A model generated the notes under the pieces. That model was not told the origin of the DNA. It searched no databases and saw only the letters and a program-made list of their open reading frames with translations. A program made the position numbers and the translations under genes. A DNA stretch of 64,000 nucleotides. Origin: Escherichia phage vB_EcoP_PW8. How positions within the stretch are numbered: the stretch's first letter is position 1; each line of letters begins with the position of its first letter. Below are positions 9,748 to 26,670 of this stretch, piece after piece. Location: the sequence record PQ362703.1. The stretch is one strand, 5' to 3'.

Positions 9748-9757
9748 TCAACTACTA

Positions 9758-9785: not shown

Positions 9786-9887
9786 AACTATGCGAAAGGC
9801 TATTTCTACTTTTTGAGTATCTTTAGACGAAGGGTACTGAAACAGTAACCAGATAGATATAGATTTATATTAGAAGAGGAATTAACC

Positions 9888-10368: not shown

Positions 10369-10373
10369 CAAGG

Positions 10374-10405
10374 AGTCCTCCATTAGGAGGGCTTCTATTT
10401 TTTAT
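10374..10405 (+). terminator. intrinsic terminator
   Basis: AGTCCTCC-atta-GGAGGGCT (one G-U pair) followed by TCTATTTTTTATT. Confidence 0.55.
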
Positions 10406-10446
10406 TCTTGAATAGTTAGATATGTATTTAAATAGGAGAAATAACC

Positions 10447-10764: not shown

Positions 10765-10981
10765 TGTAATTGTAGGTAATGAGATATTCGTTGACCGAAA
10801 AGGCTATGCAAGAATTAAACTAAAGGGTACTAACAGAACTATTGTTCGTAAGGTGTACTCTAAACCTTTTAGCAATTTCTCTATTGATGAAGTACGCATT
10901 AATAACAAGATGTACTTCATAGATAGTAAAGTATCTGTATGCCATACAGATGGTAAAACCTCTCTTGAATATACTTACTAA
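10748..10981 (+). CDS. hypothetical early protein
   Basis: 77-aa ORF overlapping its neighbour. Confidence 0.3.
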   Translation: MNNLSDVIVGNEIFVDRKGYARIKLKGTNRTIVRKVYSKPFSNFSIDEVRINNKMYFIDSKVSVCHTDGKTSLEYTY

Positions 10982-10993
10982 GGAGTAAGCAAA

Positions 10994-11215
10994 ATGCTGT
11001 TCAGCACTAATTATGGAATCTGCCCAATCTGTAAGAAAGGAAGAGGAGTTGCTAATCATAAGAAGTGTAGTCGTATCCTACAGAAACAACGGAACCAGAA
11101 GGAATGGGATAAGATACTGGAAAATCAGCACAAAGATGAGTTCAAGGAGACAGCTATTAAAGCATCTACTCAGCTTATTCGTCGTACTAACTTCATAGAA
11201 GGCTACCAGAAATGA
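10994..11215 (+). CDS. small zinc-ribbon-like protein
   Basis: 73 aa with CPIC...HKKC cysteine/histidine spacing. Confidence 0.35.
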   Translation: MLFSTNYGICPICKKGRGVANHKKCSRILQKQRNQKEWDKILENQHKDEFKETAIKASTQLIRRTNFIEGYQK

Positions 11216-11466
11216 TTATTACGTATCCTACGGGCAAGAACGTGGAATATATGAAACATACTATTCAAGTGCCTCACTGGGTTAAGTATATAGCGTTATA
11301 TACTCGACAGTATAAGAGTGCTAATACCTCATTAATAGGATTCTCTAAGAAGCCTAAACTAACAGAAAACAATATCTGGGTATCCTCTGGGAGACAAGAA
11401 GAGATTGGTTTTTGCGATTTGAGTATTGTCGATAATAACATCTATGGGACATTGAGAAAGGTATGA
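11212..11466 (+). CDS. hypothetical protein
   Basis: 84-aa ORF, start overlaps upstream stop. Confidence 0.35.
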   Translation: MIITYPTGKNVEYMKHTIQVPHWVKYIALYTRQYKSANTSLIGFSKKPKLTENNIWVSSGRQEEIGFCDLSIVDNNIYGTLRKV

Positions 11467-11783
11467 AAACTATTCTAGTAGTTCATGATTCTACATTTAC
11501 TGATGTAGATAAGATGATGCGTAATATTGATTATGTATCTCAGACAAGCCAGGCATTCAACGAAGAGTTTACTCTCTACTGTAATGCTAAATCACCGCTG
11601 GTTCCTATTCTTAAGGAATCAGGTCTACCCTTCTCTACAGAGAACTTCCCGGAAGAACCAGACTATGTAATCTCATTTATCTATGACTTACATGATGGTT
11701 CTGAAATAAGTGAATTAGCTATGAACCAGTGGCGTAGTAAACGTCCTGTGTTCGCATTTCAGGTACTTAAACCAAAGGATTAA
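11463..11783 (+). CDS. hypothetical protein
   Basis: 106-aa ORF, start overlaps upstream stop. Confidence 0.35.
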   Translation: MKTILVVHDSTFTDVDKMMRNIDYVSQTSQAFNEEFTLYCNAKSPLVPILKESGLPFSTENFPEEPDYVISFIYDLHDGSEISELAMNQWRSKRPVFAFQVLKPKD

Positions 11784-11785
11784 AT

Positions 11786-12136
11786 ATGAAAGAAATCTTA
11801 GTATTCACTACCAATGTACTTGGGCAGCATACTAATGCTGCTGCCAAATTAGCTTATAAGAAACACGGTGCTCGCTGGGGTATGGCCTATGGTCATTATG
11901 GTAATAGCTTTGCCATTCCAGTAAGAGATGGCAATGGTAACCGAATTAAAGAGGGAGCTATTTATGGCTTCATCGAAGGCTTCATTGCCTATTCATCTTC
12001 TAATCCACAGTGGGATTTTAAAGTCATGAGTAATGACTATCTGGACCCATACCAGTTCATCAATGTAACAGGCAATGTACTGTTACCAGAAGCATGGCGT
12101 AAACACTTAGGTGATGCTTACAACTACTGGAGTTAA
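11786..12136 (+). CDS. hypothetical protein (Gly/aromatic-rich)
   Basis: 116-aa ORF. Motif GARWGMAYGHYGNSFAIP not recognised. Confidence 0.35.
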   Translation: MKEILVFTTNVLGQHTNAAAKLAYKKHGARWGMAYGHYGNSFAIPVRDGNGNRIKEGAIYGFIEGFIAYSSSNPQWDFKVMSNDYLDPYQFINVTGNVLLPEAWRKHLGDAYNYWS

Positions 12137-12138
12137 TA

Positions 12139-12399
12139 ATGACATATGAAGAACTGTGGTCTGCTCAAGTCAGAGCCAGAGCACTCACACGACACGATAT
12201 CTATTATGCATTACAAAATGAATTAAAGAGTCGTACTAAGCTGGGTCACATATCTGGTTTTATTAAGATACCTATGACTAGCCTAGTCTGGCCTTATCAA
12301 AAGAAAAGTAATGAGTTTAACAGTAATGGTCTGCATGTACGTATCGACTACCTTGGTCAAGAGAACAGTATTCGTATTACCTTTTGGACTAAGCGTTAG
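12139..12399 (+). CDS. hypothetical protein
   Basis: 86-aa ORF. Confidence 0.35.
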   Translation: MTYEELWSAQVRARALTRHDIYYALQNELKSRTKLGHISGFIKIPMTSLVWPYQKKSNEFNSNGLHVRIDYLGQENSIRITFWTKR

Positions 12400-12404
12400 G
12401 TAAC

Positions 12405-12419
12405 AGCTGCTCCGCAGCT
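12405..12419 (+). promoter_or_regulatory. candidate virion-RNAP hairpin promoter (AGCTGC-TCC-GCAGCT); could also act as terminator
   Basis: Perfect 6-bp stem with TCC loop, about 35 nt upstream of the RNAP II small-subunit gene. Followed by TTTTGG. Confidence 0.4.
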
Positions 12420-12452
12420 TTTGGTTATTAATCACATTTAGGAGAATAAGCG

Positions 12453-13268
12453 ATGTACTCATCTATTGAACATCAGAAGCAGCTCGAAAAACTATTCAAT
12501 AAAAATCAGCTCTTGCCTCGCATGAGGAAGGAATTCGAGGACTCCGAAGAAATTGACTTTAAGGCTTTTGCTGCCTATTTAGAAATTGATTATAAGCTGC
12601 TCATTGATGCAATGGTGCAGATTGCCCTACATAAACGTGCTGACATCCAAACTATGATTGGCTCTCTCATGAGTCATTCAGATGATGCTCAGTATATCGC
12701 TGACTGTCTGTATAAGATGGCAGAGAATGACTGCTTCAACTATGACCCTACCATCGACAAGTTCGGTGTTATTTATGAGATTAGTGAAGATGTACAGATG
12801 GAACTGGAAGCATTCCAGTACCCATTGCCTATCGTAAGTGCTCCTAAGCCTGTTAAGTGTAACCGTGATACTGGTTACTACGAAAGCAGAGGTAGCATCA
12901 TCCTCAAGAAGAACCATCATGAGATGGATGTCTGTCTTGACCATATCAACCGTATGAACAATCAACGTCTCTGCATTAACTGGGACGTTGCTAACTATGT
13001 AAAAGACTCCCGTCCTAACATGGATAAACCCAAAGAGGGTGAAACCCGTCAGGACTACGAGAAGCGTGTTAAAGCCTTTGAGAAGTACAGCCGTACAGCT
13101 AAGGAAGTAATGGAGCTAGTGACCAAAGAAGGTAATAACTTCTCCTTGGCTCATCGTTACGATAAGAGAGGACGCACTTACTGTTCCGGATATCATATAT
13201 CCTATCAAGGCACTTCCTATAACAAAGCTGTTATTGAATTTGCAGACAAAGAACTAGTAGAGGACTAA
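12453..13268 (+). CDS. phage RNA polymerase II small subunit (T7-like RNAP N-terminal part)
   Basis: 271 aa, immediately upstream of the catalytic subunit. Assignment by size and synteny with the N4 two-gene RNAP II. Confidence 0.45.
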   Translation: MYSSIEHQKQLEKLFNKNQLLPRMRKEFEDSEEIDFKAFAAYLEIDYKLLIDAMVQIALHKRADIQTMIGSLMSHSDDAQYIADCLYKMAENDCFNYDPTIDKFGVIYEISEDVQMELEAFQYPLPIVSAPKPVKCNRDTGYYESRGSIILKKNHHEMDVCLDHINRMNNQRLCINWDVANYVKDSRPNMDKPKEGETRQDYEKRVKAFEKYSRTAKEVMELVTKEGNNFSLAHRYDKRGRTYCSGYHISYQGTSYNKAVIEFADKELVED

Positions 13269-13774
13269 TGAAACCAACTCAAGCAGAGTTGATGGAACTA
13301 ATCGACTATGGCCCAGTGAATGGAACATTTCATTGGACTCATAGTCCATTGGTGTACATCAACGTAAGAGGTAAGGAGACTGGCTTATCAGGCTCCAGAG
13401 GACATCGAAAGATTGTCATTAATAAACAGGAATACAAGGCTCATCACGTAGCCTGGTGTATCATGACTGGTTCATGGCCTGAACAGGTGGATCATAATGA
13501 TACAAACCGGGCCAACAACCGTTGGAATAACCTACGTGAGGCAACTCATGCACAGAACATGTGCAATAGAACCATGAACAAGAATAACACTTCTGGATTT
13601 AAAGGTGTGCGTATTCGTAATGGTAAATACTTAGCCCAAATTCAAGTCAAAGGCACCAAAATAGCATTAGGTTCATTCACTGATCCAGTGGATGCTGCTA
13701 AGGCTTATGATGCTGCCGCAATTAAATACTTTGGTGAGTTCGCCAAAACAAACAAAGAACTCAATAACTATTAA
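13268..13774 (+). CDS. HNH homing endonuclease with AP2-like DNA-binding domain
   Basis: 168 aa. HNH-type signature (HHVAW...DHND...N) plus AP2-like C-terminus (SGFKGV...YGEFAKTN). ATG overlaps upstream stop (TAATG). Confidence 0.8.
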   Translation: MKPTQAELMELIDYGPVNGTFHWTHSPLVYINVRGKETGLSGSRGHRKIVINKQEYKAHHVAWCIMTGSWPEQVDHNDTNRANNRWNNLREATHAQNMCNRTMNKNNTSGFKGVRIRNGKYLAQIQVKGTKIALGSFTDPVDAAKAYDAAAIKYFGEFAKTNKELNNY

Positions 13775-13791
13775 TCCATTATGCGAGCCAA

Positions 13792-15036
13792 GTGGCTCAA
13801 GACGCTAAGGAACATAAAATGCAACTGTTAACCGCTCGTGAATACCTGAAAGTAGATATCGCCAATTCTTATGGCTTGGATAAAAAGACATGGGATGAAC
13901 GTATTGCTTGGTTTGATGAGAACGAAGCTAACCTGCTTAATCTGGTAGATGAAGCTGAAGATTCTGCTCTGTTCTTTGCTGGTGTAAACGCATGGAAAGA
14001 TATGAAAGCAGGTAAACCTATTGGTTATGCCGTAGCTCTTGATGCTACATCATCTGGCTTGCAGTTACTGGCCTGCCTGACTGGTGACCGTTCTGCTGCT
14101 GAACTGTGTAACGTAGTTAACTACATGGGCGAGAATGGTAAGCCATTACGTCGTGATGCTTATACAGTCATCTATCACAAGATGCTGGACATCCTTGGTG
14201 AAGCATCCCGTATTAAACGTAGTGACACTAAGCAGGCAGTTATGACTGCATTCTATGGTTCAGAAGCCAAGCCTAAAGAAGTATTCGGTGAAGGTATTCG
14301 TCTCAAGACTTTTGAGAATGTAATGGAAACTGTTGCTAGTGGTCCTTGGGCACTTAACAAGTTCTTACTGCAATGTGGTAATCCAGATGCCAACCGTTAT
14401 GTATGGGTACTTCCTGACAACTTCCACGCTGTCATTAAGGTCATGATTCCAGAAGTACAGACTGTTAACTTCTTAGGTAAGCCATTTGACATCACTCGTA
14501 TGGTTCAAGGTACTGAAGAGAAGACCCGTATGCTCTCTGCTAACATCACCCACTCTATTGATGGAATGGTGGTACGTGAGATGCTGCGTCGTTGTAACTT
14601 CGACATGAACCAGATGAGCTATGTTAAGGCTCTTTGTGAGGGAACTGGTGAATACACGGTAGGTTCTGATGATAATTATGAAATGGTTAATACACTATGG
14701 ACTAGTTATGAGAAGTCTGGATTCCTGTCTACCCGTATCTTTGATTATCTGGACTCAGAAACCATTGCATTGGTAGATACAGATGTAATCTTAGCTATGC
14801 TCAATACTATGCCTAAGAAGCCATTCCCTGTAATGACTGTACATGACTGCTTCCGTTGCCATCCTAACTACGGTAATGACCTACGTCGTCAGTACAATCA
14901 GATTCTGTCCGACATTGCTAAGAGTGACCTACTGGGTTTCATCCTGTCTCAGGTACTAGGACAAGAGTTCTCTGCTGGTAAGCTGGATGACAGCCTCTGG
15001 CAGGACATTCTTGAAACAGACTATGCGTTGAGTTAA
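13792..15036 (+). CDS. phage RNA polymerase II catalytic subunit (T7-like single-subunit RNAP)
   Basis: 414 aa. T7 RNAP-like motif A (ALDATSSGLQLLAC), motif B (RSDTKQAVMTAFYGS) and motif C (VHDCF). Confidence 0.75.
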   Translation: MAQDAKEHKMQLLTAREYLKVDIANSYGLDKKTWDERIAWFDENEANLLNLVDEAEDSALFFAGVNAWKDMKAGKPIGYAVALDATSSGLQLLACLTGDRSAAELCNVVNYMGENGKPLRRDAYTVIYHKMLDILGEASRIKRSDTKQAVMTAFYGSEAKPKEVFGEGIRLKTFENVMETVASGPWALNKFLLQCGNPDANRYVWVLPDNFHAVIKVMIPEVQTVNFLGKPFDITRMVQGTEEKTRMLSANITHSIDGMVVREMLRRCNFDMNQMSYVKALCEGTGEYTVGSDDNYEMVNTLWTSYEKSGFLSTRIFDYLDSETIALVDTDVILAMLNTMPKKPFPVMTVHDCFRCHPNYGNDLRRQYNQILSDIAKSDLLGFILSQVLGQEFSAGKLDDSLWQDILETDYALS

Positions 15037-15043
15037 TAAACTA

Positions 15044-15076
15044 GCCTCATTCCTTCGGGAGTGAGGCCTATTTTTT
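15044..15076 (+). terminator. intrinsic terminator (10-bp stem, TTCG loop)
   Basis: GCCTCATTCC-ttcg-GGAGTGAGGC followed by CTATTTTTTG. Confidence 0.65.
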
Positions 15077-15093
15077 GCTTGGAGGTAGCAACT

Positions 15094-15276
15094 ATGCTAA
15101 TCAATTTTGAAGTAATCTTTCAGCTAATACTGATAGTTTTATCTGTACTGGTTCTGGCTACGATAATCCGTGCCCACAAATCTAAGTTTGCTTACTGCTA
15201 CTATGGAGCATACTCACTTGGCTGTTTTGTAATAGCAGGATGGATAGCTTTTGCTATCTACTGCGTAAACAACTAA
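15094..15276 (+). CDS. small membrane protein
   Basis: 60 aa from ATG 15094 (GGAGG RBS). Two hydrophobic helices. Track start 15061 lies inside the upstream terminator. Confidence 0.35.
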   Translation: MLINFEVIFQLILIVLSVLVLATIIRAHKSKFAYCYYGAYSLGCFVIAGWIAFAIYCVNN

Positions 15277-15277
15277 C

Positions 15278-15303
15278 CCTCCTAACGGAGGATTTATTTT
15301 TTT
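15278..15303 (+). terminator. intrinsic terminator (short stem)
   Basis: CCTCC-taac-GGAGG followed by ATTTATTTTTTT. Confidence 0.5.
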
Positions 15304-15350
15304 ACATGTCATGTATACTAATCCTGCTATTTACTTATGAGGAAATTGAT

Positions 15351-16184
15351 ATGCCAACTTTGAAAGTAGGTTTTAACAAAACCACTAATGTTGTAACCGT
15401 ACTGGATGCCGGTGGTTCTATCCCGGGTGGTTCCGTAGAAGTAGGAACCTTTGTACACCCGGACGCCACTTACCCAGATAGCTTAGTTATCTTCCATGGT
15501 GTTCGTGATCTGCTGTATAAACGCTCTGCTAAAGATCCTAGTAAAGCAGGCTTCTGGCCTAACAATATCGTGGATATGCAGTCTATCTCTATTGATATGA
15601 AAGCTACCCCACGACTGACTATTGCTACTAAACTAGCTCGTGTAGTCTCCGCTATCGAAGGTGAAGACATCAACTGGCATGTTGATGTAGCGGGTGGCAA
15701 AGCACCATTTACTTATAAATGGCAGTTCAAAGCTGATACTGCTGGTGCAGCATTCGCTGATATTAGCTCCAGTACTAACCAATCAGCTGCTACTGCAACG
15801 CTGACCCTTAAAGGCGTAACAGCTGCTTCTGCTGGTACTTACAAAGTGATTGTTACTGATGCTAATGGAACCACGGTAGAAGATGAGTCACTGCTGGCTG
15901 TAGGCTACTACGAAGCAAGCTCTCTGGTAGCTACTCCTGCTTCACTGGATCTGTCTGTTGCTGCTGATATTACCGATGGCAAGACTGTAACCATTGTTGC
16001 TATGCCTGTTGGTTCTTCTTCTGGTGCTTTATCTATCAAGACTGCTCCAGAATCTGGTCGTGCTACAGCTACCATTGCTGGTAACGTACTGACAGTTAAG
16101 CCTGTGGCTGCTGGCGATGCTACTTCTGTAGTAGTTACCAACGGTACTGTCGATGTAACTATCCCTATTACTGTTGCAGAATAA
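15351..16184 (+). CDS. Ig-like domain protein, probable capsid decoration protein
   Basis: Start placed at ATG 15351 (GAGGA RBS); track start 15240 overlaps the terminator. Ig-like segment (FTYKWQFK...GTYKVIVTD) and Ala/Thr/Val-rich beta repeats. Confidence 0.5.
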   Translation: MPTLKVGFNKTTNVVTVLDAGGSIPGGSVEVGTFVHPDATYPDSLVIFHGVRDLLYKRSAKDPSKAGFWPNNIVDMQSISIDMKATPRLTIATKLARVVSAIEGEDINWHVDVAGGKAPFTYKWQFKADTAGAAFADISSSTNQSAATATLTLKGVTAASAGTYKVIVTDANGTTVEDESLLAVGYYEASSLVATPASLDLSVAADITDGKTVTIVAMPVGSSSGALSIKTAPESGRATATIAGNVLTVKPVAAGDATSVVVTNGTVDVTIPITVAE

Positions 16185-16234
16185 GGGTATTCTTTGTTTG
16201 GGGTTATAAACCCTGAAATAAAACTCCCAAGTTT

Positions 16235-16264
16235 GACCTCCCTATTGAAGGGAGGTCTTTTTTT
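16235..16264 (+). terminator. intrinsic terminator
   Basis: GACCTCCC-tattgaa-GGGAGGTC followed by TTTTTTT. Confidence 0.7.
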
Positions 16265-16289
16265 GACTTAAAAATCCTGGAGCCAGGAA

Positions 16290-16478
16290 ATGTATAAAGA
16301 AATTGCATTCTTCTCGTTCTTACTTGGTGGTTTGATAGGTGCAGGATTTGTAGCTATTTCTAATACCTACTTTGGTTCTACCCCAAACTCTGTAACACAA
16401 ACCCTCAAGCATGAATGTGAATTGAATATCCCTCGTAATCAAAACTGTGTAATGCAGTTCATACCGGAGAAGAGATGA
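16290..16478 (+). CDS. small membrane protein
   Basis: 62 aa, GGAG RBS, one hydrophobic helix. Confidence 0.35.
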   Translation: MYKEIAFFSFLLGGLIGAGFVAISNTYFGSTPNSVTQTLKHECELNIPRNQNCVMQFIPEKR

Positions 16479-16660
16479 AATTAACCCAGTCCCAGATTAT
16501 TTTCCTTCGCATGGTTCAAGGTGGTTCTGCCACCAGCAACCGTAATAACAAAACTGCACAGTCTCTTAAGAAACTGGGCTTAGTACAGTTCAATACTGGT
16601 CTTGGGTGGTCATTAACCCCTATCGGTGTACTTCAACTCAGTGAAATGAAAGGTAACTAA
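16475..16660 (+). CDS. small protein, possible helix-turn-helix
   Basis: 61-aa ORF. Confidence 0.3.
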   Translation: MKLTQSQIIFLRMVQGGSATSNRNNKTAQSLKKLGLVQFNTGLGWSLTPIGVLQLSEMKGN

Positions 16661-16990
16661 ATGAAAACTTTACTTAAAGGTGTTGCTGTAGCTGCACTGA
16701 TAGCTTTGGTTCCAAATGCACAGGCAATTAAACCAGAACCAATTCTGGAAGGTGCTCAGGCTTACCTGGATGACACTCGTGATGCGTTCGGACAAGGATT
16801 CTTCATGGGCAGTATGATCTCTTACATCGAGAACACTAATAACTGTGTTCCTGAAGGTATTAAGTATTCAGTCATTCTGCCTAAGATTGCCAAAGTAGTT
16901 ATTTACGACTCTGCAATCCTCAAGATGAAGAATACATCTCAAATTGTTGTGTACTCAGTACACAAGGCATACCCCTGCACCAAATCTTAA
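16661..16990 (+). CDS. secreted/periplasmic small protein
   Basis: 109 aa with signal-peptide-like N-terminus (MKTLLKGVAVAALIALVPNAQA). Confidence 0.4.
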   Translation: MKTLLKGVAVAALIALVPNAQAIKPEPILEGAQAYLDDTRDAFGQGFFMGSMISYIENTNNCVPEGIKYSVILPKIAKVVIYDSAILKMKNTSQIVVYSVHKAYPCTKS

Positions 16991-17024
16991 TCAGTAATTC
17001 CATTAGCTTTAGGAGAGTAAGTAA

Positions 17025-17224
17025 ATGGCAAGCATCGACTCCTTGACTGTATGTAATTCACGTCAAGCTCGTAACTTTATTATCCGTGCCCTGAAAGCAG
17101 GTAACGTACCGTTCCTGACTTCATCACCAGGCATGGGTAAATCTGCAATTATTCGTTCTATTGCAGAAGAATTTGGTATGAAGCTGATAGACCATCGTCT
17201 GTCTACTTCTGCCCCGGAAGACCT
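17025..17224 (+). CDS. MoxR-like AAA+ ATPase, exon 1
   Basis: Contains Walker A (SSPGMGKSA). Frame stops 2 codons after the proposed 5' splice site at 17224. Confidence 0.55.
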
Positions 17225-18098
17225 TAACTAATAGGGCTTTGTGAGGGTGACCTCACATCGAAAGCTATCTAAATGGGGAAACTCCTACTATTACAGGGAA
17301 ACCATGATACACTCTGGTTTCCCAATAGAGGACAATCCCATGCTAAATATTAATGAAAGTTGGAAAGACATTGTTGGTTATGAAGGTTACTACGAAGTCT
17401 CTACGCATGGTCGTGTTAGAAATACCCATACAGGTATGATAAAGAACCAATGTGTACAGACTAGCGGCAAGTATCTACAAGTTAGTTTGTGGAAAGGCAA
17501 CAAAGAAAAAAGATGTTTAGTACATCGCTTAGTTGCTATAGCCTTCATTCCTAACCCCGAAGACAAGCCTCAAGTAAACCATTTAGACAAAAATGATAAG
17601 AACAACCATGTTCAAAATTTGGAATGGGTAACCATATCCGAGAATCATTTACATGCATTTGCTAATGGTAGAAAAGGCTCCAAATCCCGACTAGGTGAAA
17701 AAACTAGTAAAGCCTCTCAGTATCGATATGTGTACTGGGATACCAAAAGAGCTGTTTGGAAAGCATCTATAAAGATAGACGGCAAAACAGTAAACATTGG
17801 TAGATTCAATACTGACCTAGAAGCAGCTTTAGCCGCTGATGAGGCAATTGATTCCTGGGGCTGGGATAGAATTAAAAACTTTCAATAATTAAATGCCTAA
17901 CGACTATCGAAAACACGTAGTGATACGGAAGTGAGTAGAGTAGGGTGCAAGCCAATGGCACTCGAAAAGATAGCCACCCGGACAGGTAAAGCTGAGGGTG
18001 TTGATATAGTCTGGTCTGCGTAGTAATACGTAGCTGTATATGTCCAACTCGCATATACGGGTAGAGCCTTGCAAACTCTACTGAACATAACGTAGTGG
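17225..18098 (+). mobile_element. group I intron carrying an HNH homing endonuclease gene
   Basis: P-like (17271-17303, GGGGAAAC/CAGGGAAACC), Q-like (17334-17343 AATCCCATGC), R-like (17895-17909 GCCTAACGACTATCG) and S-like (18001-18014 TTGATATAGTCTGG) elements. Exon ACCU can pair with intron GGGU at 17245-17248. Last intron nucleotide is G at 18098. Splicing restores a DLLP motif. Confidence 0.6.
17340..17888 (+). CDS. intron-encoded HNH homing endonuclease
   Basis: Motifs WKDIVGYEGYYEVSTHGRVRN, HRLVAIAF...NHLDKNDKNNHVQNLEWVT and an AP2-like C-terminus. Start uncertain: ATG 17340 or 17304, or track start GTG 17241. Confidence 0.75.
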   Translation: MLNINESWKDIVGYEGYYEVSTHGRVRNTHTGMIKNQCVQTSGKYLQVSLWKGNKEKRCLVHRLVAIAFIPNPEDKPQVNHLDKNDKNNHVQNLEWVTISENHLHAFANGRKGSKSRLGEKTSKASQYRYVYWDTKRAVWKASIKIDGKTVNIGRFNTDLEAALAADEAIDSWGWDRIKNFQ

Positions 18099-18945
18099 TT
18101 TGCCATTCCGTAATGGTGACCGTGCAGAGTTTATTCCATTCGCTGACTTATTTCCCATTGAGGGAGACGAAGTACCCGAAGGTTATAATGGCTGGCTCCT
18201 GTTCCTTGATGAGTTCAACTCAGCTAGGAAAGAAGTGGTAGCTGCTGCATACAAACTGATTCTCGACCGTATGACTGGTCAGAAAAAACTTCATCCCAAT
18301 GTGATGATTGTTTGTGCTGGTAACAAAGCTACCGACCGTGCAATTGTTAACCCACTAGGTACTGCAATGCAGTCTCGTGTGGTTCACTTTGAAATGGAAC
18401 TTAACTTCGACATCTTCGTTGAAGACGTAATGATTCCACAACAATGGGATGAACGTCTGGTTGCATTTCTACATGCTAACCCTGGCTATCTGCACGACTT
18501 CGACCCTGCTCATAAGAACAAAACATTCTGTTGTCCTCGTACCTGGGACTTTGTTAACAAAGATCTCAAGAACCAACCAGAAGGTGCATTGCCTGACGAG
18601 GATTCCCTGTACTACAGTGGATTTGTTACACCAGGTAAGGCTGTAGAGTTTGTTCAGTTCACCCAGGTGTACAATCGTATCATTACGATCGAAAAGGTAG
18701 TCAAAGACCCATTGGGCTGTGCACTACCAGAAGATAACAACCTGTGCTGGGCTACCGTTAACCACTTGGCTAACAAAACTACTGAAGAGAACTTCGCTGA
18801 TGTTCTTCAGTACATTGAACGCTTTAAAACGTTCACTCATAAGATTCTGTACTTCCGTACAGTAGGCAGAGCATTGCCAGAACTTCAGGCTACCCCTGAA
18901 TGGCGTAAGGCTGCTGCTAATATCTCTCGTTACATTCACGGATAA
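18099..18945 (+). CDS. MoxR-like AAA+ ATPase, exon 2
   Basis: Begins LPFRNGD and contains Walker B (LLFLDEFN) about 45 residues after the exon 1 Walker A, then ...IVCAGN. Frame is open from 18091. Confidence 0.55.
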
Positions 18946-18949
18946 AACA

Positions 18950-20125
18950 ATGAACCAATTTCCTCAGCACACTCTTAGTGATGAACAACTCATGCGTGAG
19001 TATGACCGTATTCAAGCTCAGGCTTTCCTAGGACGCAGCGCAGCCTTCTTTGGTTCATTACTATGTAGTCTTAAATTCTCATGGAAACGTGGGGATTGCC
19101 CCACTGCATGTACGGATGGGATAGAACTCCATTTCAATCCTGATTTCTTTATCTGGATGTGTCCAGATGCAAGAGAAACAGTATTAATGCACGAACTATG
19201 GCATGTGGCATATCTACATGACATCCGTCGTGGAAGCCGTGACCCAGAAGTCTGGAACCAGGCATGTGACCACTTCATTAACCTTCAGTTAGAAGAGGAT
19301 GGTTATAAGTTCACTGGTATTGATGAAGGCATTTGCAAAGACCCCCAATATAAAGGATGGGTCGAAGAAGACATCTATGATGACCTGATGAAGAACCCTC
19401 AGAAAAGGCAAAAGCCGTCAGGGGGTGCTGGAGCAGGTCTTGCTGGCGACATGAAATCCCCCACTTCGGGGCAGTCCCAGGGTGCTGTCGTCAACAACGT
19501 AGTACGTGCAATGCAGAGCCAGAAGATGGCAGGTGGAACAATGCCTGGTAAGGGTGCTGGTCGTATGGAAGAGGTCATTACCCAATTCCTTAAACCAGTG
19601 GTTCCCTGGCAGGAAGTTCTGATGAATTTCTTTACCGACATTGATGACACTCATTATACGTGGGCCAGACCTAACCGTCGTTACACTGACATCTATCTAC
19701 CTTCCCTGGAAGATGATGAAGGGCGATTACGACACTTAGCCTACTTTGAGGATGTATCCGGTTCTATTAGTAGTGCTGACTCTCTGCGTTTTAACTCAGA
19801 GGTTGCCTACGTTAAGAGCCAGTTCAATCCTAAGAAGATGACCCTAATCACCTTCGATGATGTTATCCAAGAAGAGATAGACATCACTGAAGAAGATACT
19901 TTTGAGGAGATTAAGATTACTGGTCGTGGTGGTACAAACCTGGAACCAGTACGTGATTGGATTATTAAGAATAAGCCAACCGCTGCAATCATATTCTCTG
20001 ATATGTATGTTCGTCCAATGGAAGAACTACCATTTGATATCCCAATCATCTGGTGTGTTCTGAATAATCCTAATGCTACCGTACCTTTTGGGGAGGTAGT
20101 TCATATCCCTAAAGGAATGAAATAA
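18950..20125 (+). CDS. metallopeptidase-like / VWA-like protein, partner of the MoxR ATPase
   Basis: 391 aa with HExxH motif (HELWHVAYLH), directly downstream of the AAA+ ATPase gene. Confidence 0.5.
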   Translation: MNQFPQHTLSDEQLMREYDRIQAQAFLGRSAAFFGSLLCSLKFSWKRGDCPTACTDGIELHFNPDFFIWMCPDARETVLMHELWHVAYLHDIRRGSRDPEVWNQACDHFINLQLEEDGYKFTGIDEGICKDPQYKGWVEEDIYDDLMKNPQKRQKPSGGAGAGLAGDMKSPTSGQSQGAVVNNVVRAMQSQKMAGGTMPGKGAGRMEEVITQFLKPVVPWQEVLMNFFTDIDDTHYTWARPNRRYTDIYLPSLEDDEGRLRHLAYFEDVSGSISSADSLRFNSEVAYVKSQFNPKKMTLITFDDVIQEEIDITEEDTFEEIKITGRGGTNLEPVRDWIIKNKPTAAIIFSDMYVRPMEELPFDIPIIWCVLNNPNATVPFGEVVHIPKGMK

Positions 20126-20631
20126 TGGTTGTTAATGGTAATTCTCTATATCGTTCATCCCAGTTGCTAGATGTTCCTGACCATAAGGTATCCGAGCACG
20201 GTGTAAGCTATGGTTTAGGTGAAGCTGGTTATGATATTCGTATCAAACAAGACATTACCTTCTATCGCTTATTTGGGTTGATTCCAATGGTGAAAGTCGT
20301 TGATGGAAAACAAGTATCACGTCATTTCGGCAAGTTCACGTTGGCTTCAGCAATCGAGAAATTCAACATGTCCCCATCCTGTGTAGCAATCGTTCACGAT
20401 AAATCTACCTGGGCAAGACATGCATTATCAGTGTTCAATACCGTAATCGAACCAGGGTGGAAAGGTTGGCTTACTTTAGAGCTTGTCTATCATGGTCGTA
20501 AGAAATTGCATATCCCGGCTGGTTCTGGGATAGCTCAAGTATTATTTCATCTGGTTCAAGAACCTGCTAATTACAATGGCAAGTACATGAATCAGGAAAA
20601 CAAACCAGTAGCTGCAAGAAGCAGTAAATAA
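20125..20631 (+). CDS. dCTP deaminase / dUTPase-superfamily protein
   Basis: 168 aa with GYDIRI, S..AR and IEPGWKGWLTLEL motifs. Confidence 0.5.
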   Translation: MVVNGNSLYRSSQLLDVPDHKVSEHGVSYGLGEAGYDIRIKQDITFYRLFGLIPMVKVVDGKQVSRHFGKFTLASAIEKFNMSPSCVAIVHDKSTWARHALSVFNTVIEPGWKGWLTLELVYHGRKKLHIPAGSGIAQVLFHLVQEPANYNGKYMNQENKPVAARSSK

Positions 20632-20640
20632 GGAAACAAC

Positions 20641-20850
20641 ATGTCAGTATTTCAAGTAACTCATGCAACCTCAGATGTACGCTTAACCATTAATGCTGCA
20701 AATGTAATTGCAGTAGAACAGATTCCACAGTCTGACCATGCACGCGTCATATTTGTAGATAATAACTATATAGAAACCAAAGAAACCTATCGTTCAGTAC
20801 GCAATTACCTGAAGAAAGCTCTTACACCTGCAAGCAAAGACTCTGAGTAA
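20641..20850 (+). CDS. hypothetical protein
   Basis: 69-aa ORF. Confidence 0.3.
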   Translation: MSVFQVTHATSDVRLTINAANVIAVEQIPQSDHARVIFVDNNYIETKETYRSVRNYLKKALTPASKDSE

Positions 20851-20887
20851 GTAGCTGCCTAAATAGCCCAACTATGTTGGGCTATTT

Positions 20888-21166
20888 GTGAAGAAACTAA
20901 CTCAACCCCACATAGGAACCATCATGGAATCTTTAGCAGCAATCCTTGTTATGTTATTTGTATTAGCTGTATACCTTATCCCTACTATCATTGCTTTTTC
21001 ACGAGGCCATGTCTCTAAGTGGGGCATTGGTGTGCTTAATATCGTATTAGGCTGGTCTTTAGTCTTCTGGGTAGTAGCACTGATTTGGTCACTGTCCAAC
21101 AAAGGTCAGAACCAGGTTACGAATGTAACTGTTGTTCAAACCAATGGTGGCAGTAAAGCAGAGTAA
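20888..21166 (+). CDS. small two-helix membrane protein, superinfection-immunity-like (tentative)
   Basis: 92 aa, two hydrophobic helices with YLIPTIIAFSRGH between them. Confidence 0.35.
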   Translation: MKKLTQPHIGTIMESLAAILVMLFVLAVYLIPTIIAFSRGHVSKWGIGVLNIVLGWSLVFWVVALIWSLSNKGQNQVTNVTVVQTNGGSKAE

Positions 21167-21240
21167 CTAATCTAAGCATCATTACATAGTGGTGCTTGTG
21201 GAAGTTGCTTCCAGCTCATTGCTTATCCATCTCCTAACCC

Positions 21241-21270
21241 AAGCCCACCTAACCCGTGGGCTTTTTTAAT
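21241..21270 (+). terminator. intrinsic terminator
   Basis: AAGCCCAC-ctaaccc-GTGGGCTT followed by TTTTAAT. Confidence 0.6.
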
Positions 21271-21283
21271 TACAGGTACTCTT

Positions 21284-21667
21284 ATGCCAAACAGACAAAA
21301 TGGTAAGTCTATCTTATATGGACTGGACTTAAGTAAACTGGAACAAACTGCAATGCTTACTTTAGGTAAAACTATGCATGACCAAGTGGAGAATGAAACT
21401 GAATCAGATGTTTATGCATTAATGCAGGATCTTATTCAGAAAGGATGGCCCAGCAGAATATTTAATGTCCCTTCATACATCCCCCCAGAACCTCATCTGA
21501 AATCTAAGGTAGATCATATCATAGATAAGTTCTGGGCATATCCAGGAGAAGGTCACATGTACCTATACCTGGAGCAGTTACGAAAGAATCCCATTACTCG
21601 TGACTTGTTCAAGGGTAAAAGCACTACTCACCACTGCCCCTGGTATAGAAGAGGTAGTAAATACTAA
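21284..21667 (+). CDS. hypothetical protein
   Basis: 127-aa ORF. Confidence 0.35.
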   Translation: MPNRQNGKSILYGLDLSKLEQTAMLTLGKTMHDQVENETESDVYALMQDLIQKGWPSRIFNVPSYIPPEPHLKSKVDHIIDKFWAYPGEGHMYLYLEQLRKNPITRDLFKGKSTTHHCPWYRRGSKY

Positions 21668-22110
21668 TGCGTATCCCATTCCTAAGAAAAAGAGAACAAA
21701 TACATGTTCTTTATAAGAAAGGTATAGAAAATGAGTATGAACTCAACCGTAAGTCTCGTTCCTACATAACAAAATTATTTATGGGGACTAACAACCCTGA
21801 TAGATTACTGGACTTTGTTTTTGAACAAGTCTTTATCATATACAGCTTAGCTATGTCTGCTGGTTCACAGGAAGTAAGTGATAAGGCAAGACATGCTCTC
21901 TGTATGCTCCGTAAAGAGTATGAAGCCCTCATGTATGAAGACTTGTACTCCTTTAAAAAAGAAACCGCTGTAGCGTGTTCTGAGGCTCTTACTGAAGGTG
22001 TAGCAGTATTACAAGAACTACCTCGTAGTGAGTTTAAGCTGGTATATGTTCAGGTTAAGAGAATCACAGAGACGAGAAGTGGTATCACCAACTATCTAAG
22101 GTCATTCTAA
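21667..22110 (+). CDS. hypothetical protein
   Basis: 147-aa ORF, start overlaps upstream stop. Confidence 0.35.
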   Translation: MRIPFLRKREQIHVLYKKGIENEYELNRKSRSYITKLFMGTNNPDRLLDFVFEQVFIIYSLAMSAGSQEVSDKARHALCMLRKEYEALMYEDLYSFKKETAVACSEALTEGVAVLQELPRSEFKLVYVQVKRITETRSGITNYLRSF

Positions 22111-23054
22111 TGATTAAGGCATCAGTAATTGCAGATTCCGTTCATCCAGAAACAGGAACTCGTATCACAACATTTGAATTGGTTTATCCCCGATTCATTC
22201 ACAGTGAGTTTATGACTCACCGTGTATTCAACCGTAATGCCTCAAGCAGTCGTGCAATCCCTACTTCTAAGTTGATTGAACAGGTTCGTAATGAACCAGT
22301 GATGCCAAGTCACTGGGGTAAGAACCAGAAAGGTATGCAAGCATTTGAAGAACTTACTCCTATGGAGATTGAAGATGCTAAGTTTATCTGGGATAACGCT
22401 GCTTCTGCTGCTGCTGTGTATGCCGAACAGTTACGTCGTGGGCAAGTACACAAGCAAATTGTTAACCGTATTCTGGAACCATTTACACATATCCGTGTAG
22501 TGGTAACCTCAACTAGCTGGGCTAACTTCTATGGACTGCGTGACCACAAAGATGCACAACCAGAGATTCGTGAACTGGCTCAGGCAATGCGTAAGGCACA
22601 TGAAGAAAGCACACCAAGAGCACTATCATATGGTCAATGGCATATGCCGTACATTGCTCATATTGATCGTGTTGGTGCTCACAATTTCTGCAAACGCAAT
22701 CGAATTACACGCGATGAGCCAAGTGTTGCAGAAGTGTATGGACTGCTTCTTAAAGTAAGTGCTGCACGTTGTGCTCGTGCTTCTTACAACAATTTCGAAG
22801 GCCGTCCTTCTACTATCGAAGAAGACCTTGGCTTATTTGCTAAGTTAGTGGAAGACCAACCTATTCATGCTTCTCCAACAGAACATCAGGCTACTCCTAT
22901 GAATCTTGGTGAGAAGTACGTGAATAACATGAACCCAGTTACATGGGAACAAGGTGTTACATCCATGGATAAAGAAGGGAATCTGTACTCGGGTAACCTG
23001 CTCCACTTTATCCAATTCCGTAAGTTAATTCCTGGTGAGGCCATTACTGAATGA
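22110..23054 (+). CDS. thyX: flavin-dependent thymidylate synthase (ThyX-like)
   Basis: 314 aa with ThyX-like signature (FMTHRVFNRNASSSRAIP). Confidence 0.65.
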   Translation: MIKASVIADSVHPETGTRITTFELVYPRFIHSEFMTHRVFNRNASSSRAIPTSKLIEQVRNEPVMPSHWGKNQKGMQAFEELTPMEIEDAKFIWDNAASAAAVYAEQLRRGQVHKQIVNRILEPFTHIRVVVTSTSWANFYGLRDHKDAQPEIRELAQAMRKAHEESTPRALSYGQWHMPYIAHIDRVGAHNFCKRNRITRDEPSVAEVYGLLLKVSAARCARASYNNFEGRPSTIEEDLGLFAKLVEDQPIHASPTEHQATPMNLGEKYVNNMNPVTWEQGVTSMDKEGNLYSGNLLHFIQFRKLIPGEAITE

Positions 23055-23263
23055 AAAAACTAGCTCTGTACGCAATGCTAATTAGTGCCTTACTCACACT
23101 GACCTACGCATACAAAGTCGCCTTTGTGGTAGGAACAGATATACAGTTAATTCTAGCTAGTGTTCTGTTTTTTGTAAGTGAGATTGGTTTGTGGTGTATC
23201 TATTATTTTGCTCGTGACTATGAAGCAATTCGTGAACATGATGAAGCAAAAGAACGTATGTGA
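23051..23263 (+). CDS. small membrane protein
   Basis: 70 aa, two hydrophobic segments. Confidence 0.35.
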   Translation: MKKLALYAMLISALLTLTYAYKVAFVVGTDIQLILASVLFFVSEIGLWCIYYFARDYEAIREHDEAKERM

Positions 23264-23296
23264 CACTTCATTGAAGAAAATAGTAAGTAAACCTAA

Positions 23297-23321
23297 GACC
23301 TCCTCCGGGAGGTCTTTTTTT
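23297..23321 (+). terminator. intrinsic terminator
   Basis: GACCTCC-tccg-GGAGGTC followed by TTTTTTT. Confidence 0.7.
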
Positions 23322-23350
23322 GGTTTCAATTAACTCTTTTAGGATGGTTT

Positions 23351-23563
23351 ATGCCTGCTAAATACCGTATCAAAGACACACCCGTAATGTGTGAGGGAGA
23401 GAAAGGTGACATTGTACATGCCTGTATCCAGGACGATTTCAATGCTGCTCAAATGTTAACTCAAATGACAAATACACTGCATGTATCAGTAACACTGGAC
23501 CCTACTGGTGACTATCCATGCTTCCCCATTCCTGCCCATAACCTGGAGCAAATTTATGATTAA
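23351..23563 (+). CDS. hypothetical protein
   Basis: 70-aa ORF. Confidence 0.3.
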   Translation: MPAKYRIKDTPVMCEGEKGDIVHACIQDDFNAAQMLTQMTNTLHVSVTLDPTGDYPCFPIPAHNLEQIYD

Positions 23564-23870
23564 CCCTGAAGTAATTCATAGTAAAACCGGTAAAGCTGTC
23601 CCACTTAGTGAGATTGCAGTAACTGGGGATATTGCTGCTTGCCCAGCAAACATTGCCTCTCTATGTATGTGCATTGCTGCACTGGCAGAGGAACGTAAGT
23701 TATGGCTGGAGCCAAGCAAGGAAATGGTTCTAGCTGGTATGGCTGAACTGAATGCACTTCTGAAAGAAATGTATGACGAGAATGGTCAATTAGTTGAACC
23801 AACTGATGACCAAATTTCAGACGCTGTAGTATTTGTCCTTCAAGCAATGGCAGGTAAACGTAATGGTTAA
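23556..23870 (+). CDS. hypothetical protein
   Basis: Start placed at ATG 23556 (GGAG RBS); track start is 23508. Confidence 0.35.
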   Translation: MINPEVIHSKTGKAVPLSEIAVTGDIAACPANIASLCMCIAALAEERKLWLEPSKEMVLAGMAELNALLKEMYDENGQLVEPTDDQISDAVVFVLQAMAGKRNG

Positions 23871-24075
23871 ATTTAAACCTGGTGATGTGTTCTATGATTC
23901 AAAAAATAAATGTCATTTTGTTTTGGAACTGGAGCTTAGAGTACTGGAATCTTTCTGTGTAAGAATGCTTACCAAAAACAATAATTTATATGGAAAACCT
24001 CTGACACTGGTAGGTTATAACCACCTAGAACTTTCACGATTCACATTAGTGGGACGCAAAGCAGTAATCAAATAA
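23863..24075 (+). CDS. hypothetical protein
   Basis: ATG 23863 overlapping upstream stop; track start TTG 23833. Confidence 0.3.
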   Translation: MVKFKPGDVFYDSKNKCHFVLELELRVLESFCVRMLTKNNNLYGKPLTLVGYNHLELSRFTLVGRKAVIK

Positions 24076-24102
24076 GCAACATTTAATCCGGAGAGTAAAT
24101 AA

Positions 24103-26670
24103 ATGTTAGTTGCAGATACCAATGAAGTAGCTACCTCAGCGACACTGGGTGGCAAAGAAACAATTGCCTTTGGCATCTCCGATGACCCGGCATTCTTTCA
24201 CGTATTAAGTACTTCCCTGTATAACAATCCTACCCTGGCAGTAGTCCGTGAGACTATCTGTAACAGTTGGGATGCTCATATTGAAGCAGGTAAGACTGAT
24301 ACCCCTATCCGTATCACTATTGATACAGACAACTTTATTACCTTCCGTGACTACGGTAATGGTATTCCAGATGAACTCATTGGTTCCATTTATGGTGTCT
24401 ATGGTGCATCTACTAAGAAAGCCAACAGTAGTGCTACTGGTGGTTTTGGTCTGGGATGTAAATCCCCATTCGCTTATACAGATAGCTTCCAGGTTACTTC
24501 ATGGAACCAGGGAAAGATGTCGGTATATAACGTAGCTAAGGCTGCGATTGAGAATGATGGTAAGCCTGGCATTGTTCCTATCGTTACTAATATTCCTACT
24601 GAGGAATCCGGTATGGAAGTTAAATTCCAGTTAGGCAAGCATGATGTAAATACCTTTGTACATTACATCACATCAATTGTGTTCAATGGTGAGATTAAAG
24701 CTGAGCTTAGTATCCCTAAACTCGTTAAAACAGAAGCAGGTAATAGTATTCAACAAGGTGATTACACTTTACTGAATACGTTAGGTATGTCATTTGAACC
24801 TGGTTCATATGATATGTCTGATAGCTGGTATAAAGGCTATATGGGTAACAGTAACATATTCGTTCGTTACGGTAACGTAATGTACCCAATAGTATCTAGC
24901 CCAGCTAGTGAAGAAGCTGTAGGTCTTATCCTCAACTTTATGAACATCATTGGTGCTTCTAATTTAGTAGTTCAGGCTGCACCAGACACCCTGGCTATTG
25001 CTCCTAGTCGAGAAACTCTGTCTAACCAGAAGTTAACCGACGATGGTATTACTACTCTGTGTGTTGATTTAGTAGACCGTATGGAGAAAGAGATTAAGGC
25101 TAAAATTCCTGAAGCTATTAAGCAGGTTGAGAAATATGCCTCTGAAGCCACTACTTGCTATTGGAAATATCCACCTTTCCTGTCTGCTGTTAAAGACTCC
25201 ATTGTTCAACGATATATGTCCTCTAGTTTGTGGGCTAAGCAACGTAAGCATCATATCAAGCACTGGCGTAACTTATCCAATAAGGCATTATTAGCTCGTC
25301 CTGAATATGCAGGTCTTAAGAAACTGTATGGTAAGGCTATGCGTGCTCTTAAGGATACTCGTGAAGAAAGTACATACTCCCCATTCCATGAATTAGTATA
25401 TCGTCATCTGCACTTACCCCAGCTTGCTGCTTTAAAAGCTATAGGTATTAAGTGGTCTGGCTACATAGTGAACCAGGGTAACAGTGTTGATTTGGAGAAA
25501 GGTAAACTCGCTGACTACTTTAGAATATTCCATAACTCCCACCAGAGTATTGGCATATTCACTACCAAGAACGTTGTAGTTACCCGACGTTTATCTGACT
25601 GTGCAGACTCTTTCTCGTACTTCCCTGAGTACAACCGAGGTGACTTGGAGCGTACAGCTTTTGTTCACGTCGTTGGACCTAAGAAGGGTGCGGCAGAGGA
25701 AGCTGTAGCTAAGTTCACTGCTATGGGTTATCGGGTAATTGACCTTACTCAATACAATGAGTGGGACAAACCAACTAACTTCCGTAGGGAACAGGCTAAG
25801 ATAGCTGCTGAGAGACGAGCTAAGACAATAGCTACCAATAAAACCAAAGCAGGAGGTAAAACTAATGCTCTGATTTCATTGAATGCAGTTAATGGTACTA
25901 CTATTGTACGGGATAAAAATGGTGATTGGTTATCTAAGCCTTATATTCAGAAGGAGTTTGCTGACCCAAGCCGCCATGATAAATCTGGTTTCGTTGAAGT
26001 AGAGAAGCCAAAGTACTATGTACTGGCTAATCAGGTTGGTTCAGGTAGCCCAGTAACTGCCAGTATTGGAACCATGTGGAAATGGCATGAGTTGTCCGAT
26101 GAGATGAAAGCAGAGACAGTTGTCTGCCGCAATCAAATCGAAGCTAACAAGGCCAAACGACGGGGTGCTATCCACATTGATGATGTTCGCTTTAGGGAAC
26201 TGATGTCAGTCATTACCAGTAAGGGATTCAAGAAGTATATCACTGAACACCGTATTGGTATTCTGGAATACGTAGGACTAGATGACAGAGAGTATTGGGA
26301 AATCCTAGATATTCTTGGTCTAACATTCAAACCATTACAGAATCTGATTTTTAAACCAGAGTATGAATGGGCATATGACTTTTTACGAAATCGACCACAC
26401 GACAACAAAGAAAAACTTGTTGAAATGGGTTGTATTAAGTCAGTTGATGACCTAGAGCCATATATAGTGATGACTAATCCCCGTAACCATAAGTATTTCC
26501 AAATACTTAATGATTACAAAGGACTATTCAGCTATAGCTGGGCTAAAAATGACATCCTACAGACACTGGACTTAGGTAGTTTGGTCAAGCACCTTAAGAA
26601 GAATCCAGAGGATATTCCTGGGTTTAAGTGCCTCTACCGTAATCGTCTAAATAAACTGAAAGGTAACTAA
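24103..26670 (+). CDS. rIIA: rIIA-like protein with N-terminal GHKL-type ATPase fold
   Basis: 855 aa. GHKL-like N box (NSWDAH), G1 (DYGNGI) and G2 (GGFGLG). Confidence 0.55.
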   Translation: MLVADTNEVATSATLGGKETIAFGISDDPAFFHVLSTSLYNNPTLAVVRETICNSWDAHIEAGKTDTPIRITIDTDNFITFRDYGNGIPDELIGSIYGVYGASTKKANSSATGGFGLGCKSPFAYTDSFQVTSWNQGKMSVYNVAKAAIENDGKPGIVPIVTNIPTEESGMEVKFQLGKHDVNTFVHYITSIVFNGEIKAELSIPKLVKTEAGNSIQQGDYTLLNTLGMSFEPGSYDMSDSWYKGYMGNSNIFVRYGNVMYPIVSSPASEEAVGLILNFMNIIGASNLVVQAAPDTLAIAPSRETLSNQKLTDDGITTLCVDLVDRMEKEIKAKIPEAIKQVEKYASEATTCYWKYPPFLSAVKDSIVQRYMSSSLWAKQRKHHIKHWRNLSNKALLARPEYAGLKKLYGKAMRALKDTREESTYSPFHELVYRHLHLPQLAALKAIGIKWSGYIVNQGNSVDLEKGKLADYFRIFHNSHQSIGIFTTKNVVVTRRLSDCADSFSYFPEYNRGDLERTAFVHVVGPKKGAAEEAVAKFTAMGYRVIDLTQYNEWDKPTNFRREQAKIAAERRAKTIATNKTKAGGKTNALISLNAVNGTTIVRDKNGDWLSKPYIQKEFADPSRHDKSGFVEVEKPKYYVLANQVGSGSPVTASIGTMWKWHELSDEMKAETVVCRNQIEANKAKRRGAIHIDDVRFRELMSVITSKGFKKYITEHRIGILEYVGLDDREYWEILDILGLTFKPLQNLIFKPEYEWAYDFLRNRPHDNKEKLVEMGCIKSVDDLEPYIVMTNPRNHKYFQILNDYKGLFSYSWAKNDILQTLDLGSLVKHLKKNPEDIPGFKCLYRNRLNKLKGN

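Follow-up and report, generated by a model that had tools for sequence, protein, structure and literature searches.

The 64,000-nt stretch of Escherichia phage vB_EcoP_PW8 analyzed here (PQ362703.1, referred to as the window) encodes a predicted inner-membrane protein of 80 residues, belonging to the T4 Imm family, in an N4-related podophage, and this protein most likely acts as T4 Imm does (probability roughly 0.6). The finding is correct and already known, as relatives carry the same annotation; our result bears out a routine annotation and settles where the gene starts. From the comparisons presented below, we infer the membrane location, topology, time of expression, exclusion phenotype and target of the protein.

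Sequence relationship to T4 Imm

The window protein was compared with the profile PF14373 (Imm_superinfect), which it matched with 59.5 bits in its 92-residue form and 60.0 bits in its 80-residue form (E 2.9e-16). This profile has a gathering score of 27.9 bits, and all 42 of its positions (1-42) are covered. A second match, with an E-value of 6.6e-30, was to PHROG 1039 ("immunity to superinfection"). T4 Imm, taken from NC_000866 as reference (83 aa, NP_049660 / UniProt P08986), itself reaches 58.2 bits on PF14373. When both proteins were aligned by BLASTP, they showed 30% identity over 61 aa (E 8e-10), with residues 16-74 of the window protein colinear with 22-82 of T4 Imm; at the resulting offset of 6, R33 and W50 of T4 correspond to R27 and W44. 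An alignment was made of 99 sequences, with T4 Imm and remote family members among them. Two residues, P20 and W49, are invariant in it, and eight more (Y17, A24, R27, I35, N39, G43, W44 and W55) reach a conservation of at least 90%; all ten are present in the window protein.

Judged by its sequence, the window protein is a secure member of the T4 Imm family (PF14373). The original prediction, which was made from the DNA alone, had noted a resemblance to superinfection-immunity proteins and named the lack of a profile match among its grounds for refutation. The resemblance holds up well: the match is strong and covers the full profile, and PHROG 1039, the alignment with T4 Imm and the annotated orthologues point the same way. 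For the alternative offered there, a membrane-remodelling factor, nothing was found in support. PADLOC gave no match for the window protein, and NCBIfam returned nothing meaningful for it.

The exclusion function would be carried over from one studied member, by homology only. An exhaustive HMMER search at E <= 1e-3 assigned 7823 clusters (50% identity) to PF14373, including many longer proteins. Since the family is very large and includes chromosomal copies without phage context, its name is no guarantee of function. One homologue (87 aa, 50% identity) lies at 1938-2201 of a contig from the Logan collection (ERR14657281). Its setting is bacterial and chromosomal, with 0 phage genes in 8 kb, and its neighbors encode an ankyrin-repeat protein, YceI, a nucleoside phosphorylase (PNP_UDP_1), a FabD-like protein and Helicobacter-type outer membrane proteins.

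Reading frame and start codon

The open reading frame 20888..21166 on the plus strand comprises 92 codons when counted from GTG. Ten related loci were aligned (features of the region are collected in Table 1). In the first 59 codons after ATG 20924, 23 of the 35 variable sites are third positions, and 26 variant codons are synonymous versus 12 non-synonymous. The imm-like gene is genuine, and purifying selection acts on it. The reading frame stands far above chance in its Pfam E-value, its third-position bias and its 82 close homologues, which are mostly found on contigs of about 72 kb.

Table 1. Features in and around the imm-like gene, and early-type hairpins of the window.
Feature	Position	Strand	Remarks
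Early-type hairpin ACATGC-TCC-GCATGT	8752-8766	+	xxxxGC-TCC-GCxxxx form
Early-type hairpin AGACGC-TCC-GCGTCT	9242-9256	+	xxxxGC-TCC-GCxxxx form
Early-type hairpin AGCTGC-TCC-GCAGCT	12405-12419	+	xxxxGC-TCC-GCxxxx form
Hairpin AAATAGCCCAAC-tat-GTTGGGCTATTT	20860..20888	+	13 pairs; directly after the gp27-like ORF
5' leader	20888..20923	+	Shine-Dalgarno AGGA 20914-20917; the 12 extra codons of the original prediction
imm-like CDS	20924..21166	+	80 aa + stop; Pfam, PHROG, start of relatives, purifying selection, AlphaFold2
Hairpin AAGCATCATTA-cata-GTGGTGCTT	21173..21198	+	11 pairs; 7 nt past the imm stop
Hairpin TGGAAG-TTG-CTTCCA	21199..21213	+	Noted in the original prediction; conserved sequence, structure not significant
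Terminator-like hairpin AAGCCCAC-ctaaccc-GTGGGCTT	21241..21263, T6 to 21267	+	Terminator scan

ATG 20924 is invariant in the ten loci, its AGGA lies 6 nt upstream, and pSb-1, EC1-UPM and Bas96 have their gene annotated from this codon. At the position of GTG 20888, ECBP1 reads GAG. The upstream hairpin reaches to the G of this GTG, its final paired base, and no Shine-Dalgarno sequence was found ahead of the codon. The 36 nt between both codons contain 4 variable sites without third-position bias, and 1 variant codon is synonymous versus 3 non-synonymous. As the GTG is not kept in ECBP1, and the ATG is invariant with its AGGA and has the coding signal downstream of it, the product should have 80 residues. 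The start is almost certainly ATG 20924 and not GTG 20888, and the 12 N-terminal codons are probably untranslated.

A GTG-initiated protein of 92 residues, as originally predicted, could draw on the frame being open from GTG 20888 and on the N-terminal extension, which is 97.8% identical in the closest relative. T4 imm likewise has an upstream in-frame start that gives 94 instead of 83 residues (bioRxiv 10.64898/2026.03.06.709160). However, nucleotide identity is high in the flanking non-coding DNA as well. Together with the GAG of ECBP1, the pairing of the G within a hairpin of -17.9 kcal/mol, the variant codons of the leader and the properties of the ATG, this led us to reject the GTG start, and we regard the longer product as highly improbable. 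Thus, the open frame stands, and the start and the length of 92 aa do not. An in-frame alternative start located 11-12 residues upstream is found in both T4 imm (NC_000866 26373-26624; 94 vs 83 aa, bioRxiv 10.64898/2026.03.06.709160) and the window gene (92 vs 80 aa), and that of the window seems to be untranslated.

Protein architecture and predicted structure

Kyte-Doolittle means over 19 residues have two peaks, 2.8 and 2.3, and uncharged runs extend over residues 3-26 and 40-58 (numbering of the 80-residue form). Between residues 3 and 59, R27, H29 and K32 are the only charged residues. They belong to the basic segment S-R-G-H-V-S-K, which separates the two hydrophobic stretches; a basic segment at this place had been noted in the original prediction.

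An AlphaFold2 model was calculated with an input of 98 sequences. Its mean pLDDT is 83.7, and residues 1-60 are confident (block pLDDT 89-95). The helices of the model comprise residues 2-17, 19-26 (with a kink at P20), 32-42 and 46-57, and the tail (58-80) is polar and disordered. R27 and W44 fall in the two turns. The second hydrophobic stretch is thus predicted to form two short helices broken at G43-W44-S45 rather than one long helix. Of the two hydrophobic helices first proposed, both stretches were recovered, but the model does not support the second one as a single helix. Judged by charge only, the positive turn residues and the N-terminal E2 would fit an orientation with the N-terminus out.

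Using Foldseek, we compared the model with predicted viral structures (BFVD). The best matches were all named superinfection immunity protein, with a TMq of 0.54-0.62 for the compact ones, and they came from phages of Pseudomonas, Aeromonas, Serratia, Erwinia and Mycobacterium. Neither the fold search nor the sequence profile retrieved a solved structure.

Hairpins and non-coding DNA around imm

The gene is flanked by four hairpins (Table 1). The most stable one, upstream of imm, has a folding energy of -17.9 kcal/mol (z -5.66), and 0 of 200 shuffled sequences folded as well. In the ten-locus alignment, the flanks of its stem are invariant and the top of the stem is variable. It is likely a terminator or an RNA-end structure. 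The first hairpin downstream of imm (-11.5 kcal/mol, z -3.74) carries two double changes in IME11 (CG to UA and AU to CG). Since these changes are two-sided and the pairing is kept, the hairpin is supported as a real structure. Both of these stronger hairpins were absent from the original prediction.

What had been pointed out there was the GGAAG-ttg-CTTCC hairpin. It is present, one base off the position given, but we rejected it as a structured element: its folding energy is -5.7 kcal/mol with a z of -1.48, and 23 of 200 shuffled sequences folded as well. No covariation was seen in the GGAAG stem, which is invariant in Gamaleyavirus and has one pair broken in N4. Within the window, the hairpin does not recur. 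A role as a promoter of the N4 virion RNA polymerase (vRNAP) was also rejected. The sizes of stem and loop fit, but the sequence class and the position do not. The hairpin reads GGAAG-TTG/TTA-CTTCC and lies about 9 kb to the right of the early promoter candidates and 28 nt before the terminator. The hairpin promoters of N4 vRNAP are located at the left genome end only (PMC4496689).

The early promoter candidates are three hairpins, each with a 6-bp stem and a 3-nt loop, which reads GGA on the template strand. They look like N4-type vRNAP early promoters as described (PMC4496689). The rightmost one lies just upstream of the ORFs 12453-15036, which take the place of the N4 RNA polymerase II genes.

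The terminator-like hairpin further downstream of imm (-12.5 kcal/mol, z -4.36) is followed, after its T6 run, by AATTA, and the ATG of the next gene lies at 21284. Its stem is invariant across the ten loci and in N4, which lacks imm. Therefore, a terminator-like hairpin does follow the gene, as predicted originally, but it is not the gene's "own", being common to N4.

No sigma-70 promoter for imm was found between the upstream hairpin and the ATG. Over positions 6500-26000, sigma-70-like promoter matches are strongly depleted (14 versus 49.3 +/- 6.5 expected from shuffles), and terminator-like hairpins are enriched (25 versus 11.3 +/- 3.3). This combination fits a region transcribed by phage polymerases.

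The fraction of variable columns in the ten loci is 11-20% in the flanks, 20% in the coding core and 55% in the C-terminal tail. Accordingly, the non-coding flanks (20846-20923 and 21167-21283) are conserved in the ten phages to a degree equal to or above that of the coding core. The neighboring coding sequence diverges freely: 15 of the 21 final nt in the upstream ORF are variable, versus 6 of 37 nt in the adjoining spacer. Rfam, searched with positions 20600-21400, gave only a chance match to Trp_leader (18 bits versus a gathering score of 41 bits).

A block reading TGGAAnTTnCTT(C/T)C...CATTGCTTA, located in the spacer that precedes the gp28-like gene, is conserved between Gamaleyavirus (21199-21225 of the window) and N4 (about 13072-13098). 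It might serve in protein binding or be related to a promoter. With up to one mismatch, CATTGCTTA occurs 40 times in the window (21.3 +/- 4.4 expected), including 2 exact copies; TTTTTTAATTA is not enriched in the window. With only 2 exact copies of the former and no enrichment of the latter, we dismissed both as recurring promoter elements.

Genome setting and comparison with N4

The window phage is a Gamaleyavirus (Schitoviridae, Enquatrovirinae), a G7C-like, N4-related podophage. Over the 4 kb around the gene, it shares 91-93% nucleotide identity with Escherichia phages 24-32N, IME11, ECBP1, Bp4 and St11Ph5. According to PHROG, the gene order is a gene placed where N4 has gp25, dCTP deaminase, a gp27-like ORF of 69 aa, imm, ORFs of 127 and 147 aa, ThyX, a membrane ORF of 70 aa, rIIA and rIIB. 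The gene in the gp25 position matches PHROG 1314, labelled "HNH endonuclease", and relatives annotate it as a VWA-like protein. The 70-aa ORF (23051-23263, plus strand, PHROG 12633) is a second small hydrophobic protein; it overlaps the ThyX stop codon and is followed by a bidirectional terminator-like hairpin at 23295-23316. The imm gene is located in the left, pre-replicative gene block, which by analogy with N4 would be transcribed by the phage's own RNA polymerase II before the late genes. An Imm homologue is also placed among early or replication genes in other virulent phages, for example Mangalitsa, AbP2 and T4.

On the opposite strand, an ORF of 3458 aa (45131-55507) takes the place of N4 vRNAP, an assignment made by position and size alone. 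Homologues of N4 gp51 (49% identity) and gp52 (59% identity) adjoin it. Two tRNA genes, tRNA-Ala (CGC) at 42821-42892 and tRNA-Ile (AAT) at 43761-43835, are located on the plus strand.

Orthologues in at least seven phages (pSb-1, IME11, ECBP1, Bp4, St11Ph5, EC1-UPM and Bas96) are already annotated as "immunity to superinfection", "putative membrane immunity protein" or "superinfection immunity protein". The exact sequence of the window protein is absent from a collection of 15 billion proteins, and the nearest cluster representative is 95% identical. The window gene is only a new allele of an already annotated Gamaleyavirus gene. The C-terminal tail of Imm (window 21101-21166) occurs in the genus as two unrelated alleles, ...NQVTNVTVVQTNGGSKAE (80 aa, the form of the window) and ...SQTTIVNVGSGNQYNVSQTSQSDK (86 aa, the allele pair being seen by comparison with four further loci), and the membrane core is nearly invariant.

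Outside the genus, the closest homologue among the matches listed is that of Mangalitsa (Chaseviridae, a small E. coli myovirus), with 61% identity. The phages that carry the listed homologues mostly have genome sizes of 160-170 kb or around 45 kb. At least some of them, namely T4-like Klebsiella phages, Acinetobacter Obolenskvirus and Mangalitsa, belong to the myoviruses.

N4 has no PF14373 gene: when the whole N4 genome was searched by tblastn with the window protein and T4 Imm, the best E-value was 0.23. N4 gp28 was considered as an orthologue and rejected; it has 80 aa and follows gp27, yet BLASTP found no similarity. By visual comparison only, the C-terminal end of gp28 (KSKSTPHMFPWYHRNRRY) looks like that of the window ORF following imm (21284-21667, KGKSTTHHCPWYRRGSKY). 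The gp27-gp28 spacer of N4 aligns with the window downstream of imm, including the TGGAAnTTnCTT...CATTGCTTA block and an identical terminator, GCCCAC...GTGGGCTTTTTTAATTA. Because the spacer aligns there, imm together with one hairpin is an indel between the gp27-like and gp28-like genes. On this alignment, the terminator at 21241-21267 predates or outlives imm. As N4 is closely related, lives in a similar way and has no copy, imm is dispensable for this type of phage.

Proposed mechanism of exclusion

From membranes, T4 Imm is reported to co-purify with part of gp29, the tape measure protein, and to sit on the hydrophobic patch of the gp29 helical-bundle domain, thereby preventing formation of the inner-membrane DNA conduit and translocation of the genome; the substitutions R33A and W50A reduce T4 exclusion (bioRxiv 10.64898/2026.03.06.709160). 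Earlier work cited there places the N-terminus of T4 Imm in the periplasm (bioRxiv 10.64898/2026.03.06.709160). Since R33 and W50 are matched by R27 and W44, both located in turns of our model, a T4-like mechanism suggests itself for the window protein. It would insert into the cytoplasmic membrane of the infected cell with its N-terminus out and the N-terminal helix as the membrane span. The R-G-H-x-S-K turn would then lie at the cytoplasmic face, in line with the positive-inside rule, and the short helix-GWS-helix unit would display the conserved tryptophan. In this way, the protein could engage the membrane-inserting channel protein of an incoming phage and stop the delivery of the genome at the inner membrane, so that superinfecting DNA would be kept out of the cytoplasm. 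In the literature searched, we found no exclusion phenotype for any Gamaleyavirus Imm.

A protein of the same family could also do another job: it might stabilize the inner membrane against damage caused by secondary adsorption, or feed the superinfection signal into lysis inhibition. N4 shows lysis inhibition upon superinfection, and all its known rapid-lysis mutations map to membrane proteins (bioRxiv 10.1101/2025.11.12.688109). Homologues of rIIA and rIIB lie 3 kb downstream of imm in the window. However, N4, in which lysis inhibition was demonstrated, lacks a PF14373 gene, so the gene is not needed for it, and the tblastn search of the whole N4 genome (best E 0.23) gave no similarity to the N4 holin or pinholin. 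In T4, such effects are thought to be secondary to the blocked entry of DNA. We therefore consider a role of this kind quite unlikely.

Possible targets of the window protein

If the window protein acts as T4 Imm does, the question of its partner arises. N4 builds its DNA channel from ejection proteins of the gp50/51/52 type (PMC13434306). Because the window phage encodes N4-type ejection proteins, the target known from T4 is not expected in its own type of virion. Three possibilities are conceivable: a different partner in phages of its own kind, competitors that bear a tape measure, or a structural role of the arginine and the tryptophan, with a general feature of channel insertion as the target. 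It is possible, and we propose it only tentatively, that Imm recognizes something other than a tape measure of its own, either the inner-membrane end of the ejectosome (the C-terminus of gp51 or the N-terminal domain of gp50) or the tape measures of competitors. In the former case, PF14373 would be a general adaptor against unrelated DNA-channel formers. In the latter, Imm would be a cross-family weapon, and the tail alleles of 80 and 86 aa could mark different specificities.

In its strictest form, the second of these options means that Imm blocks tape-measure-bearing coliphages (T-even phages and other myo- and siphoviruses) in gut E. coli and not phages of its own kind. The mechanism reported for T4 consists of binding to the tape measure (bioRxiv 10.64898/2026.03.06.709160), and a tape measure is not expected in the window podophage. 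Moreover, R27 and W44, the equivalents of the contact-relevant residues of T4, are kept, and the Mangalitsa homologue, the closest one outside Gamaleyavirus among the matches listed, suggests exchange between unrelated coliphages. On the other hand, both residues are conserved family-wide, bacterial chromosomal copies included, and thus may be structural rather than target-specific. In addition, T4 Imm acts mainly on T-even relatives, which points towards a narrow specificity (bioRxiv 10.64898/2026.03.06.709160). Overall, a weapon directed exclusively at other phage types seems rather unlikely to us.

Since an Imm of the T4 type occurs here alongside ejection proteins of the N4 type, the phage offers a clean test of whether Imm proteins recognize one defined partner or some general property of how DNA channels insert. 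Gamaleyavirus phages are phage-therapy candidates, and the BASEL collection now includes them. If their exclusion gene were active, it would influence how they act in phage cocktails.

Comparison with known systems

Among the closest known counterparts of the window gene are the Gamaleyavirus orthologues of pSb-1 (gp70, YP_009008471), EC1-UPM (AGC31537), Bas96 (Bas96_0062), IME11, ECBP1, Bp4, St11Ph5 and Moo19. They occupy the same locus, between the dCTP deaminase gene with the gp27-like ORF and the gp28-like ORF with ThyX, and they share the ATG start, the flanking hairpins and the terminator, with 58-95% protein identity over the full length. The window protein differs from all 9 aligned relatives in M10 and from all but Bas96 in V30, and it has S26 where the others carry A or T.

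In the sister genus, N4 gp18 is annotated as "superinfection exclusion" (similar to P22 gp17) and is likewise encoded in the left gene block. It is, however, unrelated to the window Imm, and N4 has no PF14373 gene. Other small inner-membrane proteins that are proposed to halt a membrane-inserting channel former from the periplasm have been compared with T4 Imm (bioRxiv 10.64898/2026.03.06.709160); the likeness of the window Imm to these would be one of mechanism only, by analogy.

A further close counterpart is imm of T4, whose product is the founding member of PF14373. The proteins have 80 and 83 aa, respectively, and each consists of a single PF14373 domain at the same position (60 and 58 bits). 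In both, an N-terminal hydrophobic helix leads to a P-x3-A-x2-R-G turn and on to a helix-W-helix unit, with a short polar tail closing the chain, and the pair R33/W50 is kept as R27/W44. Both genes belong to virulent coliphages and lie among pre-replicative genes. The differences are that the identity is only 30% and that the window phage is a short-tailed N4-type phage with ejection proteins, whereas T4 has a contractile tail with the tape measure gp29.
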